Positions 1,348 through 55,514 of a stretch of 64,000 nt of DNA are shown here, piece by piece. Within the stretch, counting starts at the first letter, position 1. Each line of letters begins with the position of its first letter. Location: contig JAHITV010000018.1 in NCBI GenBank assembly GCA_018817315.1, forward strand, positions 12,012 to 76,011, written 5' to 3'. The position numbers were made by a program, and so were the translations under genes. This DNA comes from Patescibacteria group bacterium. GTDB lineage: Bacteria > Patescibacteriota > Patescibacteriia > UBA1558 > UBA10009. The notes beneath the pieces were generated by a model, which saw only the letters and a program-made list of their open reading frames with translations, did not search any database and was not told the DNA's origin.

Positions 1348-4224
1348 ATGGCTTTATATTCAACTTCAGCTGATGAGAAATTTACCGAAGATTATGCCGT
1401 TAAAACAGCCGAGGAAGAGGAATTTAAGGATAATCATGATAATTTTGTTTCAACTGGTAAAAAAACAGGAGGTTTAGAGGTAAAAAGACACTTCACCAAA
1501 GAAGGCATGCATCCTTATGAGGAAGTTAATTGGGAATTTAGAGAAGCTTCTATTACCAATGACAAAGGAGAGGTAGTTTTTTCCCAAAAGGAGGTGCAAA
1601 TCCCCAGTTCTTGGTCGCAGACCGCCACTAACATTGCTGTTTCCCATTATTTTCGCGGCCGTCTAGGCACTAAAGAAAGAGAAACAAGCGTTAAACAGAT
1701 GGTGGATCGGGTAGCTAAGACCATTACCTCTTGGGGCAAAGAGCAGAATTACTTTAAAACAGAGGAGGACGCGGATATTTATGAGAAAGAATTAACCTAT
1801 TTACTAATTAACCAGTACGCCGCTTTTAATTCACCGGTTTGGTATAATGTTGGTTTAAGCGAGCACCCCCAATGCAGTGCTTGTTTTATTAATTCTGTCC
1901 AGGACGACATGCGTTCCATTCTTAATTTAACAGCTACAGAAGGCATGTTATTTAAATATGGCTCTGGTACCGGCACTAATCTTTCTGTTTTAAGATCCTC
2001 TAAAGAATATCTGTCTGATTCTTCTGGTAAAGCTTCTGGACCAGTATCTTTTATGAAGGGTTTTGATGCTTTTGCCGGAGTAATCAAATCAGGCGGCAAA
2101 ACCAGAAGAGCGGCCAAAATGGTTATTTTAAACATTGATCATCCGGATATAAAAGAATTTATTAATTGTAAAGCTTTAGAAGAAAAAAAGGCCTGGGCTT
2201 TAATAGAAATGGGTTATGACGGAACATTAAATGGTGAAGCTTATGCTTCTGTTTTTTTTCAGAATGCCAATAATAGCGTGCGCGTTACTGATGGGTTTAT
2301 GCAGGCCGTGGAAAATGACGGTCAATGGAAAACCAGATATGTAAAAACTAAAGAAGCAGCTGATACTTACCGTGCCAGAGATTTAATGAAGCAAATAACC
2401 GAAGCTGCTTGGATTTGCGGTGATCCCGGCTTACAGTTTGATACTATCATTAATGAATGGCATACCTGTATTAATTCCGGACGCATTAATGCCTCTAATC
2501 CTTGCAGTGAATTTATGTTTTTGGATGATTCATCCTGTAATTTAGCTTCACTTAACTTAATGAAATTCAGAAACAAAGATAATGGCTTTAATATTGAATC
2601 TTTTAAAAAAGCAGTAGAAATAATTATTATTGCTCAAGAAATAATCGTGGATAACGCCAGTTACCCCACACCAGCCATTACTCAAACTTCTTATGATTTT
2701 AGACCATTGGGTTTAGGTTATGCTAATTTAGGAGCACTATTAATGAGTTTGGGTTTGGGTTATGACGGTGATGAAGGCCGCAATTATGCTGCAGCAATCA
2801 CTTCTTTAATGACTGGACAGGCTTATTTACAATCAGCAAAAACCGCTGCTTTTAAAGGACCTTTTAAATATTTTGAGCTAAATAAAGAGCCAATGTTAAA
2901 AGTTATTGGTATGCATCAGGTTGCTGCCAATAAAATTGACAACAGAGGAGTAGCAGCTAGTTTATTGCAGGCCGGTAAAGAGGTTTGGGACAAAGCTTTG
3001 GTTTTTGGCAAGCAGGCAGGTTTTAGAAATGCTCAAGTTTCTTTACTTGCTCCTACTGGTACTATTGGTTTTTTAATGGATTGTGATACTACCGGTGTTG
3101 AACCGGATATTGCCTTGGTTAAATATAAATGGTTGGTAGGGGGTGGGATGATGAAGATTGTTAATAGTGTTGTGCCTTTAGCTTTGAAAAATTTAGGTTA
3201 TTTACCGGAAGAAATTGATAGTATTTTAGAATATATTGATGAAAACGAAACTATTGAGGGGGCGCCTAAGTTAAAGGAGGAGCATCTACCTGTTTTTGAT
3301 TGCGCCTTTAAACCTAAAAAAGGTAAACGTAGTATTCATTATATGGGGCATATAAAAATAATGGGAGCAGTGCAACCGTTTCTTTCTGGGGCAATTTCTA
3401 AAACTGTTAATATGCCCCATGAAGCTACAACCGAAGATATAGAAGAAGTTTATTTGACTGCTTGGAAACTCGGTATAAAAGCCATTGCTATTTATCGTGA
3501 TGGTTCTAAACGTACTCAACCACTTACTACTTCACTTGATGGTGAAGCAAAAGTTAAAAGCGAGGTAATAAAGCCTGCCAGAAAAAGATTACCGGATGAA
3601 CGGCAAGCCATCACTCATAAATTTTCCATTGCTAATCATGAAGGTTATATGACCGTAGGTTTGTATGAAAACGGAGTACCAGGGGAAATATTTATTACTA
3701 TGTCTAAAGAAGGCAGTGTTATTTCTGGCTTGATGGATTCTTTTGCCACAGCTGTTTCTGTGGGATTGCAATATGGCGTGCCTTTAAAAGTTTTAGTTAA
3801 TCGTTTTATTCATTCCCGTTTTGAACCTTCTGGTTTTACTAATAATCCTAATATTAGAATAGCTAAATCAATCGTGGATTATATTTTTAGATGGTTGGCT
3901 TTAAAATTTTTGCCGCCGGAAGATTTGATGTATGTAGGGCTTAATAATGTGGAGTCGCTAACTAATGGCAATGGCAAAAGTGATTTAGAAAAACTGACAA
4001 AAGTGGCTGATGAAGAAGCTATTAAACATGAAAAGAATGTTAATGAAGATACAGAGGAAGAGAACATAATTTATCAACAGGTGACTATGGATTTAAGAGG
4101 TGATAAAGAAACTTTTGATATGCAATCTGATGCTCCGATTTGCGATACTTGCGGTTCTATGATGGTTAGAAACGGGTCCTGTTACCGGTGTATGAATTGT
4201 GGCAGTACCAGTGGTTGTTCTTAA
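1348..4224 (+). CDS. nrdJ: Class II (adenosylcobalamin-dependent) ribonucleotide reductase
   Basis: The N-terminal 'EVQIPSSWSQTATNIAVSHYFRG' is NrdJ-type. The active-site 'SNPCSEF' (N-x-C-x-E) is present, as is a C-terminal CxxC...CxxC zinc ribbon. Length is 958 aa. Confidence 0.85.
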   Translation: MALYSTSADEKFTEDYAVKTAEEEEFKDNHDNFVSTGKKTGGLEVKRHFTKEGMHPYEEVNWEFREASITNDKGEVVFSQKEVQIPSSWSQTATNIAVSHYFRGRLGTKERETSVKQMVDRVAKTITSWGKEQNYFKTEEDADIYEKELTYLLINQYAAFNSPVWYNVGLSEHPQCSACFINSVQDDMRSILNLTATEGMLFKYGSGTGTNLSVLRSSKEYLSDSSGKASGPVSFMKGFDAFAGVIKSGGKTRRAAKMVILNIDHPDIKEFINCKALEEKKAWALIEMGYDGTLNGEAYASVFFQNANNSVRVTDGFMQAVENDGQWKTRYVKTKEAADTYRARDLMKQITEAAWICGDPGLQFDTIINEWHTCINSGRINASNPCSEFMFLDDSSCNLASLNLMKFRNKDNGFNIESFKKAVEIIIIAQEIIVDNASYPTPAITQTSYDFRPLGLGYANLGALLMSLGLGYDGDEGRNYAAAITSLMTGQAYLQSAKTAAFKGPFKYFELNKEPMLKVIGMHQVAANKIDNRGVAASLLQAGKEVWDKALVFGKQAGFRNAQVSLLAPTGTIGFLMDCDTTGVEPDIALVKYKWLVGGGMMKIVNSVVPLALKNLGYLPEEIDSILEYIDENETIEGAPKLKEEHLPVFDCAFKPKKGKRSIHYMGHIKIMGAVQPFLSGAISKTVNMPHEATTEDIEEVYLTAWKLGIKAIAIYRDGSKRTQPLTTSLDGEAKVKSEVIKPARKRLPDERQAITHKFSIANHEGYMTVGLYENGVPGEIFITMSKEGSVISGLMDSFATAVSVGLQYGVPLKVLVNRFIHSRFEPSGFTNNPNIRIAKSIVDYIFRWLALKFLPPEDLMYVGLNNVESLTNGNGKSDLEKLTKVADEEAIKHEKNVNEDTEEENIIYQQVTMDLRGDKETFDMQSDAPICDTCGSMMVRNGSCYRCMNCGSTSGCS

Positions 4225-4311: not shown

Positions 4312-4495
4312 CGATCAGGGAATGGGGTGACTTCTCGACAAGCTCGAAGTTCGAGAATATTCCTCAGCAGTCGCGCTACTGTAATTTAACCTTGATTTTC
4401 TAAGGGTTTTAATATAAGCCCTTCGGGACTTCGACCGAGCTTAGTCGAAGTCTAAACTCAAGGTTGATTAGCCAGAGAACTGATCCTGGATTATT
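4312..4495 (+). ncRNA. Candidate cobalamin (B12) riboswitch aptamer
   Basis: 'cAGGGAAtggGGTGA' (4316-4330) resembles the GGAA..GGTG core. 'GCAGTCGCGCTACTGTAA' (4366-4383) matches the conserved GCnGnCCCGCnACnGTnA element at 17 of 18 constrained positions. 'AGCCAGAGAAC..CCTGG' (4470-4489) is a degenerate B12-box (AGYCMGGAGACCKGCC). Several internal hairpins are present. It sits upstream of a putative B12-uptake operon. Confidence 0.45.
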
Positions 4496-7055: not shown

Positions 7056-7616
7056 GTGGATAATATGTCAGAAAACACCTTTGGCAAAATTCATGTTTAT
7101 ACCGGCGATGGTAAGGGTAAAACAACAGCGGCTTTAGGTTTGGCTATTAGAGCGTTGGGTAATAATAAAAAAATAGCTATTATTTATTTTGATAAAGGCG
7201 GAGATTTTTATAATGAAAGAAAAGTTTTAGACCAGTTAATAGGTAATAATTTTCAGTATTTTGTCACTGGTCAGCAAAGATTTGATCCCCTGAAAAAAGT
7301 TTTTAGATTTGGCGTAGAAGCAGAGGACAAAGCTGAAGCTTTAAGGGGATTAAACATTATTGAAAGATTATTCAATGAGGCCACCGTAGATTTATTGATT
7401 CTGGACGAAATCAATCCAGCCATTCATTTAGGTTTAGTGGAACTGGAAATGTTTTTGAAAATTCTGGAAAAAAGACCTTCCCAGATAGAATTGATTTTAA
7501 CCGGCCGTAATGCAACTCCTCAAGTTTTAGCCAAAGCAGATTTAATCACAGAAATGAAGGAAGTTAAACATTATTTTAATGAAGGCCTTAAAGCCAGAGA
7601 AGGTATAGAATATTAA
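7056..7616 (+). CDS. cobA: ATP:cob(I)alamin adenosyltransferase (CobA/CobO/BtuR family, EC 2.5.1.17)
   Basis: The P-loop 'KIHVYTGDGKGKTTAALGLAIRALG' matches the CobA signature 'VFTGNGKGKTTAAFG'. 'LILDEI', 'LILTGR' and C-terminal 'VKHYFNEGLKAREGIEY' align with the CobA C-terminus. Confidence 0.85.
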   Translation: MDNMSENTFGKIHVYTGDGKGKTTAALGLAIRALGNNKKIAIIYFDKGGDFYNERKVLDQLIGNNFQYFVTGQQRFDPLKKVFRFGVEAEDKAEALRGLNIIERLFNEATVDLLILDEINPAIHLGLVELEMFLKILEKRPSQIELILTGRNATPQVLAKADLITEMKEVKHYFNEGLKAREGIEY

Positions 7617-7633
7617 GAATTTAATAATAAATT

Positions 7634-8074
7634 ATGAAAAATATTAAATTTGTTATCATTGCTTTAATTTTTTTGGTGGTAGGGTTTTTTGCTGGTCAAA
7701 GTTATCAGTTAAATCCCGTTGTTCAAAACTCAACCGTGGAGAATAAAGAACAGCAGGAATTATCTGATATTACTATTTCAATCAAGTTTGACGAGAATAA
7801 TATCAGAGAGATTCAGAATTTAATTATTTCCCAAGATCAAACAGTTTTGGATTTACTTACCAAAGTTGCCGAGGAAAATGATCTAGCTTTTAAAACCCAG
7901 GATTACGGCGATTTAGGTATGCTAGTCACTCAAATAGGGGATAAAGTTAATGGTCAGAATAATAAATATTGGCAGTATTATATTAATGGAGAATTTGCTG
8001 CTGTCGGTGCCGATCAATATAAACTTACAGGCAAAGAAAGAATAGAATGGCAATTTAGCGAAAGTGAATTTTAA
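7634..8074 (+). CDS. DUF4430-family (transcobalamin beta-domain-like) secreted/membrane-anchored protein
   Basis: N-terminal TM/signal. 'KYWQYYINGEFAAVGADQYKLTGKERIEWQF' fits the DUF4430 pattern (W.YyvNg...ga..y.L.dgD.I.w.y). Length is 146 aa. Confidence 0.55.
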   Translation: MKNIKFVIIALIFLVVGFFAGQSYQLNPVVQNSTVENKEQQELSDITISIKFDENNIREIQNLIISQDQTVLDLLTKVAEENDLAFKTQDYGDLGMLVTQIGDKVNGQNNKYWQYYINGEFAAVGADQYKLTGKERIEWQFSESEF

Positions 8075-9846: not shown

Positions 9847-10488
9847 ATGTTAGGAATTTCTCACTTTACAGATTTTATTATTCATTTAGATGATTATCTA
9901 CTTTTAATTGTTAATGATTATGGTTTTTTGACTTATCTGATTCTTTGGTTAATCATTTTTTGCGAGACAGGTTTAGTCTTAACACCATTTTTACCAGGTG
10001 ATTCTTTATTATTTGTGGTAGGAACTTTAGCTGCCATGGGTTTATTAAAAGTGGGATTATTGTTCGGTCTTTTGTTTTTAGCCGCAGTTGTGGGAGATAC
10101 AGTAAATTATTGGTTGGGTCATTTTATTGGGCCAAAAATATTCAATAAAGAAGATTCTCGTTTATTTAATAAGAAATATCTTGAGCGCGCTTTTCGTTTC
10201 TATCAAAAATATGGCGGTCAGACTATTGTTTTAGCCAGGTTCGTGCCTTTTCTTCGGACTTTTGTGCCTTTTGTAGCAGGTATGGCCAGAATGAATTATT
10301 GGCTGTTTATTGTTTATAATATTTTAGGCGGTTTTTTGTGGGTGGGAATTTTTATTTTTGGCGGATATTTTTTCGGTAATCTGCCTTTTGTCAAAGATAA
10401 CTTTACTTTATTCATCTTGGGGATTATTTTTGTCACTTTAATACCGCCAGTTTTTAGACTTATAAAAAAACCCAAGAGATCAGAATGA
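9847..10488 (+). CDS. DedA/SNARE-associated family membrane protein
   Basis: 'VLTPFLPGDSLLFVVGTLAA' is the DedA signature, with multiple TM segments. Confidence 0.75.
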   Translation: MLGISHFTDFIIHLDDYLLLIVNDYGFLTYLILWLIIFCETGLVLTPFLPGDSLLFVVGTLAAMGLLKVGLLFGLLFLAAVVGDTVNYWLGHFIGPKIFNKEDSRLFNKKYLERAFRFYQKYGGQTIVLARFVPFLRTFVPFVAGMARMNYWLFIVYNILGGFLWVGIFIFGGYFFGNLPFVKDNFTLFILGIIFVTLIPPVFRLIKKPKRSE

Positions 10489-10501
10489 ATTTTATTAATC
10501 T

Positions 10502-10534
10502 AAAACACAGTCAAATTCTTAACTGTGTTTTTTA
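10502..10534. terminator. Bidirectional hairpin aaacacagt-N10-actgtgttt followed by TTTT, between convergent genes
   Basis: Inverted repeat with a T-run, read directly. Confidence 0.45.
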
Positions 10535-10542
10535 GTAGTCTA

Positions 10543-11181
10543 TTATTTTATTAAGTGTTTTGTATAACCTATTTTTACAAGTTGTTTATAAGCATCCCAG
10601 ACATCATCCGGTATTTCTTGAGATATTTGAAAACCTCTTGAGGGATATATTTTAAGACGTTGCAAGTCTCCCACTATAATATTAATTACGTCTTTTTTAG
10701 AAATTTCTTTGGTAGGATATTCTTCAAATGATATTTGAGGAGAAGTTATTATAATTTTTTTATTTGGCCAGACCTTTTTAAAGGTTGCATAAGTTCTCCT
10801 TTCCATATACGGTTTTTGAACCACAATTATTTTCTTTGTTTTAATATGATGTTTGGCTAAAAGTTCTCTGGTAAATTTTATATTTTCTCCTGTATTAGTA
10901 GACTTATTTTCTATAAGTATTTTATTTTTCGGAATACCCATATTTATTGCGATCTGAGCGAATTTATCAGCTTCTGGCTCATGCCAAGTATTTTCTGTGA
11001 GATTTCCTAATCCACCAGAAAAAATAAGTAAGGGTGCATATTTGTCTAGAAATAATTGTGCACCTTTTTCAGCTACTCGCAGATCATGACTGCCTAGAGC
11101 CAAAATGCAATCAGCTTTTTCTAGTTTATGATTTAAATGATGATAATCCCAAATCAATTGAGCAAGTTGATCAGTTTTCAT
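10543..11181 (-). CDS. DUF218 (YdcF/SanA-like) domain protein
   Basis: Contains 'LLIFSGGLG' and has the size and pattern of DUF218. Confidence 0.5.
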   Translation of the reverse strand: MKTDQLAQLIWDYHHLNHKLEKADCILALGSHDLRVAEKGAQLFLDKYAPLLIFSGGLGNLTENTWHEPEADKFAQIAINMGIPKNKILIENKSTNTGENIKFTRELLAKHHIKTKKIIVVQKPYMERRTYATFKKVWPNKKIIITSPQISFEEYPTKEISKKDVINIIVGDLQRLKIYPSRGFQISQEIPDDVWDAYKQLVKIGYTKHLIK

Positions 11182-11200
11182 ATTAAAATAAATTTGTGAT

Positions 11201-11435
11201 TGGTACCCCCGCTAGGATTTGAACCTAGAACCTTCTGGTCCGACCCCGCACCAATAATTTTTTATTTTATAATTTCTTTTGGTGTCCCTGGGAGGATTCG
11301 AACCTCCAATTACGGGTCCGAAGCCCGTTGTGATATCCATTTCACCACAGGGACAGCAAGAGAGATTATAAGATTAGAATTTAGATTAATAAATAACGAG
11401 ATTGGTGCGGGGCTATCCAATTGAGCTACGAGGGC
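11201..11435 (-). ncRNA. Interrupted/split tRNA-like gene. The 5' part has acceptor + D-arm (11401-11435). The 3' part has a long variable arm + T-arm + acceptor + CCA (11201-11258). A 12-bp extended helix (ccccgcaccaat / attggtgcgggg) brackets a 142-nt insertion that contains tRNA-Arg
   Basis: Manual folding. Acceptor gccctcg pairs with cgggggt (two G-U). T-arm is ctagg-ttcaaat-cctag. A CCA is encoded. A 4-bp variable arm suggests class II. The anticodon loop is replaced by the long helix plus insertion. Confidence 0.45.
11280..11354 (-). tRNA. tRNA-Arg (anticodon UCG), CCA encoded
   Basis: Manual fold. Acceptor gtccctg/cagggac. D-stem gtga/tcac. Anticodon stem acggg/cccgt with loop cTTCGGa. 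T-arm ggagg-ttcgaat-cctcc. Confidence 0.75.
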
Positions 11436-11463
11436 AGGCGATGGAAAACTAAGACGGTTAAAA

Positions 11464-12849
11464 TTAGCGAATGTATTGTAAAGGATCAGTCTTTACCCCA
11501 TTAATTCTAACTTCAAAATGCAGATGCGGTCCGGTGGAATATCCAGTAGAGCCAATAGCAGCAATAACCTGACCACGGCTAACTGCTTCTCCTACTTTAA
11601 CTAAAATTCTGGAGGCATGAGCATACAAAGTTTTTAAACCCCCTCCATGATTAATAATAACAAAATAGCCGTATCCTCCGCTGCTCCAGCCAGCTTGTTC
11701 TACTCGGCCAGACTCTGCCGCATAAATTGGTTGACCTGTTTTATTGCCGATATCTAAACCAGCATGTCGCCAACGAAAGTATTGAGTAATGCGGCGAGAA
11801 TTAGTAGGCCATTGTAATTTAGAACCACTTTGAACTGATGGAGTAAAAATATTTATAATAGAAGGAGCTTTTGTGACAGTGGCGGTATAGGCAACTGGTT
11901 TGACTCCTTCAGGAATAATAATAGATTGACCAGCTTGAATATCAGTGGCAGAAGCTAGTTTATTGAATTCAATAATTTTTTCTACGTCTGCCTGGTAGGT
12001 CTTGGCGATTTTTTGTAAAGTATCTCCTGATTTAATTTTATGACTAATACCACTGATTGGTAAAATTTTTAGAGTTTGTCCGGGTTTAATAGTGGAGTAA
12101 TAAGATAAATTATTTTCCCAGAGCATGCTTACCACACTGATATTAAAATTTTTGGCAATAGTAGAAATAGTGTCACCACTTTCAACGGTGTAATTAATTA
12201 CTTTATCCCTTTTTTTAGTAATAGCTTCGGGATCGGTGATTTCCGGAGAAATAAGAGCTGATTCATCTTGGGTGGTAGCAACCAATGAATCAATTTTTTC
12301 TTCCACGGTTGCAGCCGGCGACTCTTCGGTTAAAGCTTCTTCAGCAAGATAAGAAACCGGAGACAATTCTTCGGACAAAGGCCCTTCTTCTATTTCACTT
12401 TCTAAATCTTCATCAGTAAAATATTCACCCACATTAGTGATTTTATAAAGAATATTTTTTTGTCCGTATTTTTCGGGATGTATTGGCTTGGCCTGTAAAT
12501 TATTGATTACTCCTAATAAACCGATTAAAACAATTATTATTAAGGGTAAATAATAGCTGTGATTTTTGGAAGCATCTTGATTTTTGGAAGCAAAGCTAGC
12601 TATTATTTTTTTTAGCTGACGGTTTAATTTGTAAGCCGGCAAAAAAACAGTATAAAAAGTGATTTTATATAAGATGAAACACGGCCAAAGTAAAATTTTC
12701 CCTATTAAAAGCAAAGGTTTTTTAAATTTGCTTGTAATTTTCAATACTTTTAATAGGGTGACTAGGAGTTTTTGTTTAAATTCTGAAGAAATATATTTTT
12801 CGTTAAATTTTATGTTTAATAAAATAACATAATTACTATCTTTGGTCAA
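11464..12849 (-). CDS. Membrane-anchored peptidoglycan hydrolase: 2x LysM + M23 (LytM) peptidase domain
   Basis: LysM motifs ('YTVESGDTISTIAKNF', 'HKIKSGDTLQKIAKTY'). C-terminal M23 motifs ('NHGGGLKTLYAHAS', 'GSTGYSTGPHLHFEV'). Confidence 0.8.
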   Translation of the reverse strand: MTKDSNYVILLNIKFNEKYISSEFKQKLLVTLLKVLKITSKFKKPLLLIGKILLWPCFILYKITFYTVFLPAYKLNRQLKKIIASFASKNQDASKNHSYYLPLIIIVLIGLLGVINNLQAKPIHPEKYGQKNILYKITNVGEYFTDEDLESEIEEGPLSEELSPVSYLAEEALTEESPAATVEEKIDSLVATTQDESALISPEITDPEAITKKRDKVINYTVESGDTISTIAKNFNISVVSMLWENNLSYYSTIKPGQTLKILPISGISHKIKSGDTLQKIAKTYQADVEKIIEFNKLASATDIQAGQSIIIPEGVKPVAYTATVTKAPSIINIFTPSVQSGSKLQWPTNSRRITQYFRWRHAGLDIGNKTGQPIYAAESGRVEQAGWSSGGYGYFVIINHGGGLKTLYAHASRILVKVGEAVSRGQVIAAIGSTGYSTGPHLHFEVRINGVKTDPLQYIR

Positions 12850-55219: not shown

Positions 55220-55256
55220 TGTCAACCCAGCCCCGCTTAGCGGGGCTGGGTTGACA
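55220..55256 (+). terminator. Rho-independent terminator: tgtcaacccagccccgc-ttag-cggggctgggttgaca followed by an A/T-rich run
   Basis: Perfect 16-bp GC-rich stem. Confidence 0.6.
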
Positions 55257-55312: not shown

Positions 55313-55405
55313 GGCACCGTAGCTCAATCGGTACCTGCCTGCCGGCAGGCAGGGAGCGCTTTCCAGATCGGGAAGAGGTTGCTGGTTCAAGTCCGGTCGG
55401 TGCCT
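55313..55405 (+). tRNA. Atypical tRNA (anticodon GAU-like, Ile?) carrying a 20-nt perfect palindrome (cctgcctgccggcaggcagg) inserted in the D-loop; possible pseudogene or intervening sequence
   Basis: Manual fold. Acceptor ggcaccg/cggtgcc. D-stem gctc...gagc, interrupted by the palindrome at 55334-55353. Anticodon loop cAGATCg has A33 and C37, both non-canonical. T-arm gctgg-ttcaagt-ccggt. Confidence 0.45.
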
Positions 55406-55422
55406 CAATTTACAGTTTAACA

Positions 55423-55496
55423 GGTGCTGTAGCTCAGGTGGTTAGAGCGCCTGTCTGATAAACAGGAGGTCGGAGGTTCGAGTCCTTTCAGCACCA
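55423..55496 (+). tRNA. tRNA-Ile (anticodon GAU)
   Basis: Manual fold. Acceptor ggtgctg/cagcacc. D-arm gctcaggtggttagagc. Anticodon stem cctgt/acagg with loop cTGATAa. T-loop ttcgagt. Confidence 0.8.
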
Positions 55497-55514
55497 CACT
55501 TTACAAATTCAACC

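Follow-up and report, generated by a model that had tools for sequence, protein, structure and literature searches.

In a 64,000-nt stretch of Patescibacteria DNA (hereafter the window, to whose positions all coordinates refer unless another locus is named), one tRNA gene lies nested between the separated pieces of a second tRNA gene at 11201-11435, with every feature on the minus strand. We consider it likely that a resident tRNA-Arg(UCG) gene was destroyed here, its positions 23-33 having been replaced by a 169-bp cassette that lacks an open reading frame (ORF) and carries a substitute tRNA, and that this replacement is site-specific and recurrent. The cassette would consist of GC-rich terminal inverted repeats (CCCCGCACC.../...GGTGCGGGG), partly complementary spacers, and a complete tRNA-Arg(UCG) of different sequence; the inner tRNA is presumed to be the gene now in use, and what is left of the outer one (positions 1-22 and 34-76) would be non-functional remnants. 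An earlier note on this DNA had recognized the nesting and offered three readings, namely, an intron-like sequence within a tRNA, a tRNA gene disrupted by the insertion of another tRNA gene, and a processed split tRNA, the second of which proved to be essentially right.

The nested locus and its broken outer gene

Read along the minus strand, the locus opens with an outer 5' fragment (GCCCTCG TA GCTC AATTGGATA G, 11413..11435) that corresponds to tRNA-Arg(UCG) positions 1-22 and contains the acceptor 5' strand, the D-stem 5' strand, the D loop with A20, and G22. The insert follows, 169 nt in total (helix strands, spacers, and inner tRNA) and without an ORF: first the left terminal inverted repeat, which is the 5' strand of a 12-bp helix (CCCCGCACCAAT, 11401..11412) and the perfect complement of 11244-11255; then a 46-nt, AT-rich 5' spacer (11355..11400) that is partly complementary to the 3' spacer; the intact, 75-nt inner tRNA-Arg(UCG) with its encoded CCA (11280..11354); the 24-nt, AT-rich 3' spacer (11256..11279); and the right terminal inverted repeat, or helix 3' strand (ATTGGTGCGGGG, 11244..11255). 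The outer 3' fragment (TCGGA CCAGA AGGTT CTAGG TTCAAAT CCTAG CGGGGGT A CCA, 11201..11243) corresponds to positions 34-76 and begins precisely at the anticodon base U34. The inner gene, encoded on the same strand as the outer element, was called as tRNA-Arg(UCG) by ARAGORN and matched Rfam RF00005 over its full length (68.9 bits, E=6e-13); it was the only tRNA called by either at the nested locus. The 12-bp helix is perfect, as the earlier note had it, and has no bulges, but it encloses 145 nt (75 of them the inner tRNA) and not 142.

The anatomy of the outer gene departed in part from the earlier description. Its ends do form an acceptor stem (7 bp, including two G.U pairs) and a T arm (5 bp, with GGTTCAAATCC), and ACCA is encoded; however, the D arm is incomplete, with only its 5' strand, loop, and G22 present, there is no long variable arm, and the helix takes the place of positions 23-33 rather than that of the anticodon loop. 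Absent from the outer gene are the D-stem 3' strand, base 26, the anticodon-stem 5' strand, C32, and U33. What had been read as a variable arm (GGACC-AGAA-GGTTC) is made up of anticodon bases 36-38, the anticodon-stem 3' strand, and the 5-nt variable loop of a class-I tRNA-Arg(UCG). A scan of one genome per species with the query TCGGACCAGARGGTYNNNGGTTCRAATCC returned at least 119 loci, and in about 110 of these the match was the 3' part, from U34 onward, of an ordinary 76-77-nt tRNA-Arg(UCG). These intact genes (about 110 among the matches listed) contain the same string as the supposed variable arm (TCGGACCAGAAGGT) and always carry ...GGATAGAGCRTCTGGCT or ...GAGCRTCTGGCT just before U34. The string that follows the helix in the window (TCGGACCAGAAGGTTC...) is likewise the tRNA-Arg(UCG) 3' part, and GGATAG in the outer 5' fragment contains the Arg-typical A20.

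When the missing 11 nt were restored in silico with AGCGTCTGGCT, ARAGORN reported a 77-nt tRNA-Arg(tcg); the two halves joined directly gave no call. Among the loci fetched for comparison (labeled L###), the intact tRNA-Arg(UCG) of the syntenic L128 was identical to the outer 5' fragment at 22/23 positions, and the fragment also aligned to L162, L049, and L014, while the outer 3' fragment had four differences from the two nearest intact tRNAs (L014 and L064) over its first 40 nt, not counting the terminal CCA. Both outer pieces come from a tRNA-Arg(UCG) that was once normal. An assignment of the outer gene to the class II tRNAs (Leu, Ser, Tyr, Sec) or to a tmRNA-like domain was dropped, as its 3' half is tRNA-Arg(UCG) positions 34-76; ARAGORN found no tmRNA, the tmRNA_permuted model reached 12.2 bits against a gathering score of 47, and the mascRNA model was also below threshold (15.5 bits against 42.5).

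Because restoring 11 nt yields a normal tRNA-Arg, an intron or a split tRNA is very unlikely. A working outer tRNA, either spliced or made of two pieces held together by the 12-bp helix after RNase P/Z release of the inner tRNA, would account for the intact acceptor stem, T arm, and CCA end, and ARAGORN did report a "tRNA-???" when the helix was closed by a tetraloop; even so, we regard it as highly improbable. Without positions 23-33 the outer gene can form no D stem and no anticodon stem, and its anticodon UCG lies directly against the helix; no group I core (RF00028) or other ribozyme matched in Rfam at E<=10 in 10900-11800; the helix offers no bulges for a bulge-helix-bulge motif; and the inner tRNA already supplies the same anticodon. 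The outer halves, moreover, decay at the homologous loci L112, L107, L033, and L092 (see below). On these grounds the intron and split-tRNA readings of the earlier note were set aside.

That the arrangement is an assembly chimera or a chance resemblance has next to no probability. The Logan assembly of run SRR6514274 does break inside the inner tRNA, yet its two contigs overlap there by 30 nt and jointly reproduce the window at both junctions, and the European Nucleotide Archive (ENA) contig is identical to the window sequence; since two independent assemblies agree on both junctions, the nested arrangement is not an assembly artifact. The same architecture also occurs in four further loci, each from a different metagenome-assembled genome (MAG). 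As for chance, GC-rich perfect 12-bp inverted repeats no more than 200 nt apart occurred 0 times in 100 composition-matched simulations of the 34%-GC window; their AT-rich counterparts are common by chance, at about 4 per simulated window.

Empty sites and recurrence at the same breakpoints

With the adjacent M23/LysM peptidase gene as a synteny anchor, we fetched relatives that retained the neighborhood of leucyl-tRNA synthetase (LeuRS) and M23; most of these had PilT, DUF6580, and DUF4430 on the other side, as in the window. Comparison of the orthologous locus was a check that the earlier note had itself named, and an uninterrupted tRNA-Arg(UCG) was found in the syntenic L128, L161, L162, and L049, an outcome that the note had set against its own claim of an unusual tRNA locus. 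The gene beside M23 was an intact tRNA-Arg(UCG) of the window's outer type in L128, L162/L163, and L049, and an intact one of the window's inner type (GYCCCTG TG GTGA AATGGATA TCAC...) in L129/L130 and L161. Both tRNA types are therefore native to the window's clade, and in the window one of them sits within the broken copy of the other. The orientation of the tRNA relative to M23 is uninformative because it varies among the relatives, and the idea that the window locus is inverted with respect to an ancestral orientation was for the same reason unsupported. A possible decayed remnant downstream of the L161 tRNA (TGGTGCG, then ACCAAGAA) was too weak to be used.

Among the matches listed, the four further nested loci (L092, L033, L107, and L112), all from other, distantly related Patescibacteria, each had an intact inner tRNA-Arg(UCG) and the same junctions, that is, after G22 (GGATAG, then CCCCGC...) and before U34 (...GYGGGG, then TCGGACC). 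In L092, GCCCCCTTAGCTCAGTGGATAG is joined to CCCCGCACCTT on the 5' side and AAGGTGTGGGG to TCGGACC... on the 3' side; in L033, ...GGATAG is joined to CCCCGCCCCCAATGTG and CACATTGGGAGCGGGG to TCGGACC...; and in L112 ("Ca. Microgenomatus"), ...GTGGATAG is joined to CCCCGCACC and GGTGCGGGG to TCGGACCAAG.... In L107 the 5' side is largely deleted, and the 3' junction (GGTGCGGGG, then TCGGACCA...) is present twice. The first 9 nt of the left end, CCCCGCACC, are thereby conserved at the same junction in L092 and L112, with CCCCGCCCC in L033; the right end, GGTGCGGGG, stands immediately before TCGGACC in L112 and in both copies in L107, with GGTGTGGGG in L092 and GGAGCGGGG in L033. Across the five nested loci the inserts measured about 110-170 bp, and no gene-carrying intermediate was seen. 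Occurrences of CCCCGCACC elsewhere (L053, L058, L080, L088, and L099) fell in coding, terminator, or GC-rich-genome sequence and were taken as chance, and a tRNA from whose acceptor end CCCCGC-A-CCA / GCGGGG might derive was not present in the fetched loci.

Filled and empty versions of the same site could be paired. L033 shares its flanks, an HU gene and tRNA-Met, with L068 and L091, in both of which the tRNA is uninterrupted; the outer 3' half of L033 is 40/40 identical to these intact tRNAs while the adjacent coding DNA is only about 70% identical, so the L033 disruption must be recent. Likewise, L064 is syntenic with L092 and has an intact gene, which makes it the empty site for L092. The outer halves form a series of increasing decay: they are pristine in the window, with nothing beyond the two G.U pairs; carry one T-stem mismatch in L092; have two acceptor changes (G1A and C2U) in L033; have lost most of the 5' half and the 5' strand of the stem in L107, where the inner tRNA is still intact; and are both degenerate in L112, which also has an extra hairpin. 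Identical junctions thus occur on different native backgrounds, with decaying outer halves. The outer remnants of the window would still be tRNA-like because the disruption event was recent.

There was no fixed "target" and "cargo" sequence, because the anticodon-stem types of the inner and outer genes in L112 are swapped relative to those in L107 and L033; the proposal that the inner tRNA always bears a "resistant" anticodon stem, unlike that of the target, was rejected on the same observation. Two of the loci also contained tandem repeats: three units of the tRNA 5' half plus the CCCCGCCCC helix strand in L033 (minus strand, oriented 7560-7700), and a repeated unit of inner 3' part, spacer, GGTGCGGGG, and outer 3' half in L107 (minus strand, oriented 1240-1600). 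Both are probably products of unequal crossing-over, in which inner and outer segments recombined through their homology.

The predicted folds bear on a further alternative, which is that the long stem, possibly together with the outer halves, is a functional RNA architecture selected as a processing scaffold for the inner tRNA-Arg (handles for RNase III or RNase P/Z, or a folding clamp). In the window, RNAfold predicted a nested fold with the leader paired to the trailer, the 243-nt transcript folding far better than shuffled sequence (z=-5.9), and an inverted repeat (I1) with 36-nt arms that are 81% complementary includes the inner acceptor stem. The window's outer halves carry no disabling mutation, and a stem closing the inner tRNA was predicted in the window, L033, and L112 even though the stem sequences are non-homologous beyond the 9-mer; the pairing is thus maintained and the sequence is not. 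We nevertheless hold this alternative to be unlikely, since the inner tRNA of L107 is intact without the stem 5' strand and the bulk of the 5' half, the outer gene of L112 has degenerated in both halves, the fold predicted for L092 bypasses the stem, and close relatives have the same tRNA types without any such scaffold.

The immediate neighbors of the window locus are genes for an M23 peptidase, a DUF218 protein, a VTT-domain protein, and PilT, and these genes with their protein matches point to Patescibacteria. A DUF218/YdcF gene and a VTT/DedA-type gene (9847-11181) lie between the tRNA locus and pilT, where the relatives have the order M23 - tRNA(s) - PilT. The YdcF protein is 65-74% identical across MAGs of very diverse taxonomic labels, a pattern which suggests that the gene may have spread horizontally. 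This DUF218/YdcF neighbor gave no usable synteny: it is strongly conserved in lineages of many kinds, and the homologue closest to it stands in a different context.

Comparison with known insertions into tRNA genes

[quoted passage not shown] In both systems an essential tRNA gene of the host is broken up by incoming DNA and is not rebuilt. There, however, a tyrosine integrase, a single core of about 10 bp, and a whole prophage are involved, whereas the nested loci have an ORF-less insert of 110-170 bp, inverted-repeat ends, and an 11-bp target deletion between two fixed breakpoints. The window thus resembles tRNA-dependent integration in its logic, the outer tRNA-Arg(UCG) being broken and the inner one intact, and not in any integrase or prophage feature.

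Genomic islands in tRNA genes regenerate their target and leave one displaced direct-repeat fragment (Islander, PMC4383910). The likeness of such islands and prophages to the present locus is that a partial tRNA copy starting in the anticodon loop adjoins a complete tRNA of the same kind; the difference is that the nested locus has non-overlapping 5' and 3' fragments flanking a complete gene, with no island between them. At the window locus there is no direct attachment (att) repeat (fragments 1-22 and 34-76 are disjoint), the ends are inverted, and the 169-bp insert holds no integrase. Work by Williams in 2002 is said to concern the sublocation preferences of integrases in tRNA genes. A collapsed integrated element is an alternative origin: a phage or island carrying its own tRNA-Arg would have entered tRNA-Arg(UCG) without rebuilding it, and the deletion bias of a reduced genome would then have removed all but the now-essential tRNA, leaving the element ends beside the host fragments. 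Mycobacteriophages provide a documented case of such logic, with a host tRNA split and not reconstructed and a same-isotype tRNA of the element making up for it (PMC10865867), and many of the fetched Patescibacteria tRNA-Arg and tRNA-Lys genes have direct copies of their 3' ends 70-290 nt downstream that resemble displaced att fragments. Integrase recombination, though, breaks a gene at a single point, with a short direct repeat as its trace, whereas the nested loci have inverted-repeat ends and exactly recurring breakpoints, two of them, 11 nt apart; each of the five cassettes is minimal, and there is no integrase near the nested loci. We therefore assign this origin a low probability.

Homing introns and free-standing homing endonuclease genes, such as that for the GIY-YIG enzyme SegB in the phage T4 tRNA gene region, offer a different comparison. 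Identical junctions on different native backgrounds are what would be expected from repair-templated copying of an insert-bearing allele; in contrast to homing systems, no endonuclease gene lies in or near any nested tRNA-Arg locus. Miniature inverted-repeat transposable elements (MITEs) and repetitive extragenic palindromic (REP) or REPIN sequences are similarly short and ORF-less and have terminal inverted repeats that form a long hairpin, and the window insert shares with MITEs its 12-bp perfect repeats, with ends conserved across loci, and its lack of an ORF. Unlike these elements, the nested cassettes lack a target-site duplication (GGATAG and TCGGACC flank the insert, with 11 bp of the target deleted), carry tRNA cargo, and, among the cases seen, always occupy one site in one tRNA gene. 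The 64-kb window contained one nested cassette, and L107 one stand-alone related hairpin.

Group I introns are frequent in Patescibacteria tRNAs, with all exon bases retained (Nakagawa et al. 2026, PMC13011429), and the reported size range of bacterial tRNA group I introns is 184-894 bp (PMC13011429). The nested insert, at 145 nt within the helix, falls below that range, a middle tRNA segment is absent, no ribozyme was detected, and the interrupted gene decays. The split, tri-split, permuted, and multi-intron tRNAs of archaea are similar in that their interruptions lie in or close to the D and anticodon loops, but those split and multi-intron genes retain every base and are cut by a bulge-helix-bulge endonuclease, whereas the window helix is bulge-free. 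In three DPANN archaea (L083, L113, and L063), tRNA-Arg(UCG) has two or more short introns, some of them near 21/22 and 32/33, close to the bacterial breakpoints; this is probably a coincidence of exposed loops.

We return to the reading of a cassette that replaced part of a resident gene. Such a cassette would act as a site-specific, self-compensating element, as the knock-out of an essential single-copy tRNA gene would be possible only because the cassette brings a substitute. Intact tRNA-Arg(UCG) genes might acquire it by gene conversion or homing, for which the conserved tRNA halves would be the homology arms, or it might be spread by a trans-acting recombinase or nuclease that recognizes the hairpin ends. 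Given the identical breakpoints and the 11-bp target deletion, copying of an insert-bearing allele into intact alleles, by homing or gene conversion, fits better than transposition or integrase chemistry. The long stem could have been retained for mobility, as a hairpin in single-stranded DNA, or to free the inner pre-tRNA when transcription reads through the locus; conservation of the 9-bp ends and maintenance of the long stem argue that the hairpin matters in one of these two capacities. A bolder proposal, to which we give only tentative credence, somewhat short of even, is that these loci represent an undescribed family of miniature "tRNA-swap" cassettes in Patescibacteria, with CCCCGCACC/GGTGCGGGG hairpin ends, that replace tRNA-Arg(UCG) positions 23-33, are impossible to lose, and spread between lineages by homing-like gene conversion or by a hairpin-recognizing enzyme.

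Several observations weigh against a mobile, site-specific cassette. No transposase, integrase, homing endonuclease, other nuclease, or recombinase was found in the cassette or within 2.5 kb of the nested loci, and at the window locus neither the insert nor the neighboring genes include an integrase, transposase, or homing endonuclease gene. The combination of an 11-bp deletion with no target-site duplication matches no standard transposition or integrase chemistry. Just five nested loci were present among the matches listed, and L107 and L112 are possibly one event, as they are syntenic. Because the inner tRNAs and spacers differ greatly between loci, it is chiefly the 9-bp ends and the identical breakpoints that speak for a shared ancestry of the cassettes. 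Two metagenome scans, one with the 3' junction and one with a two-gap pattern of the whole nested unit, gave 0 matches, a result of little weight in that the collection did not return even the source contig. Viral scans with the nested unit and with the 3' junction gave 0 matches, and the 29 matches of a viral 5'-junction scan were all chance occurrences in GC-rich phage DNA without tRNA context; viral scans with two inner-tRNA patterns also gave 0 matches. Finally, a simple promoter scan found no promoter for the inner tRNA. Full-text literature searches turned up no account, for Patescibacteria, of nested tRNA-Arg loci or of hairpins inserted into D loops.

Related hairpins and what the cassette would mean

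Hairpins related to the cassette ends were found apart from the nested loci. L107 contains, at 4420-4447 on the plus strand and between divergent ORFs, a stand-alone intergenic hairpin (CCCCGCACCAATCCCGC-CGAA-GCGGGATGGTGCGG) whose first 12 nt equal the window helix strand CCCCGCACCAAT; from this sequence identity, it may be a cargo-less relative of the cassette. Besides the nested helix, the only long GC-rich perfect inverted repeats in the window were at 55220-55251 and at 55334-55353, the latter with 10-bp arms and within a tRNA-Ile-like element. That element (55313-55406, plus strand; ARAGORN "tRNA-??? (ggca)") resembles tRNA-Ile(GAT), and its D loop is interrupted behind GGTA by a perfect palindrome of 20 nt (CCTGCCTGCCGGCAGGCAGG); ARAGORN called tRNA-Ile(gat) once the palindrome was taken out, although the anticodon loop is odd (CAGATCG). 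It lies directly upstream of an intact tRNA-Ile(GAT) (55423-55497), and the pair repeats the pattern of the nested locus, as a disrupted copy stands beside an intact gene with the same anticodon. The palindrome at 55220-55251 (core arms ACCCAGCCCCGCT/AGCGGGGCTGGGT, 1-nt loop), which precedes the tRNA-Ile-like element by about 60 nt, shares a CCCCGC/GCGGGG core with the nested helix.

Similar structures were seen in the fetched loci. Beside its intact outer-type gene, L128 has a degenerate inner-type tRNA-Arg copy (3352-3470, minus strand) with a 41-nt GC-rich D-loop hairpin that begins after GTGGAATGGA with CCCCGCC... and ends in GGCGGGCAGG before TATCAC; GGCGGGCAGG is similar both to the end of the palindrome at 55334-55353 and to an insert that lies upstream of the L092 nested locus. 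In L021 (1-520, minus strand), a disrupted tRNA-Lys copy has a 36-nt GC hairpin in its D loop and another hairpin in place of the anticodon arm, and it is followed by an 82-aa GIY-YIG ORF (PF01541, E=2e-17) that runs into an intact tRNA-Lys(CTT). This only loosely related arrangement shows that nuclease-associated tRNA replacement occurs in Patescibacteria; it does not link a nuclease to the tRNA-Arg cassette. L061 has a homologous GIY-YIG ORF as well, some 180 nt downstream of its intact tRNA-Arg(UCG); upstream of that tRNA gene (minus strand, oriented 1-190) there are two copies of a repeat of about 60 nt, one with a 17-nt insertion (GCCTACCGGCAGGCAGG) that has CTC on both sides and is related to the window palindrome at 55334-55353. 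The GC-rich hairpins in the D loops of other tRNA genes (window 55313-55406, L128, and L021) may be a cargo-less form of the same system.

Fragments of other tRNA genes, too, were joined to GC-rich elements or displaced. L162 has two tandem tRNA-Lys 5' fragments (positions 1-13; 3981-4208, plus strand), each fused to a CCCC(CC)TCGACTCGTCAAGCTACGCTTGAACTTCGCTCGGGG GC-rich element, upstream of an intact tRNA-Lys(UUU). In L045 (Omnitrophota; oriented 20-135), a tRNA-Arg(UCG) carries a 44-nt insertion in the D stem, which starts after GTAGCT with TCCCGTCAGTAGACGGGA... and ends in ...GGTG before CTCAAC; with the insertion removed, ARAGORN called tRNA-Arg, and the gene may hold an intron or a tolerated insertion or may be a pseudogene. 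Direct copies of the last ~20 nt of tRNA-Arg or tRNA-Lys genes lie 70-290 nt downstream of those genes in L021 (600-830), L030 (2120-2400), L076 (2240-2480), and others and, by their sequence, look like att scars of small or eroded integrated elements. Short 5' or middle tRNA-Arg fragments stand upstream of the intact gene in L005 and L082.

The tRNA inventories of these genomes can be wrong, because the outer halves escape both ARAGORN and Rfam and hairpin-bearing copies are either miscalled as "tRNA-???" or missed (L045). The junction-exact, recurrent cassette would be a case of element-driven tRNA gene disruption with self-complementation. The graded decay series provides a natural clock for the pace at which tRNA genes are replaced in Patescibacteria. 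If the cassette is only a scar, the locus is a clear case of tRNA gene replacement and involves no new RNA biology. If the cassette is mobile, it would be the smallest known self-compensating, or addictive, insertion, its sole cargo being the gene that it destroys, and the very reduced genomes of Patescibacteria would then also be hosts to site-specific selfish DNA aimed at translation genes.

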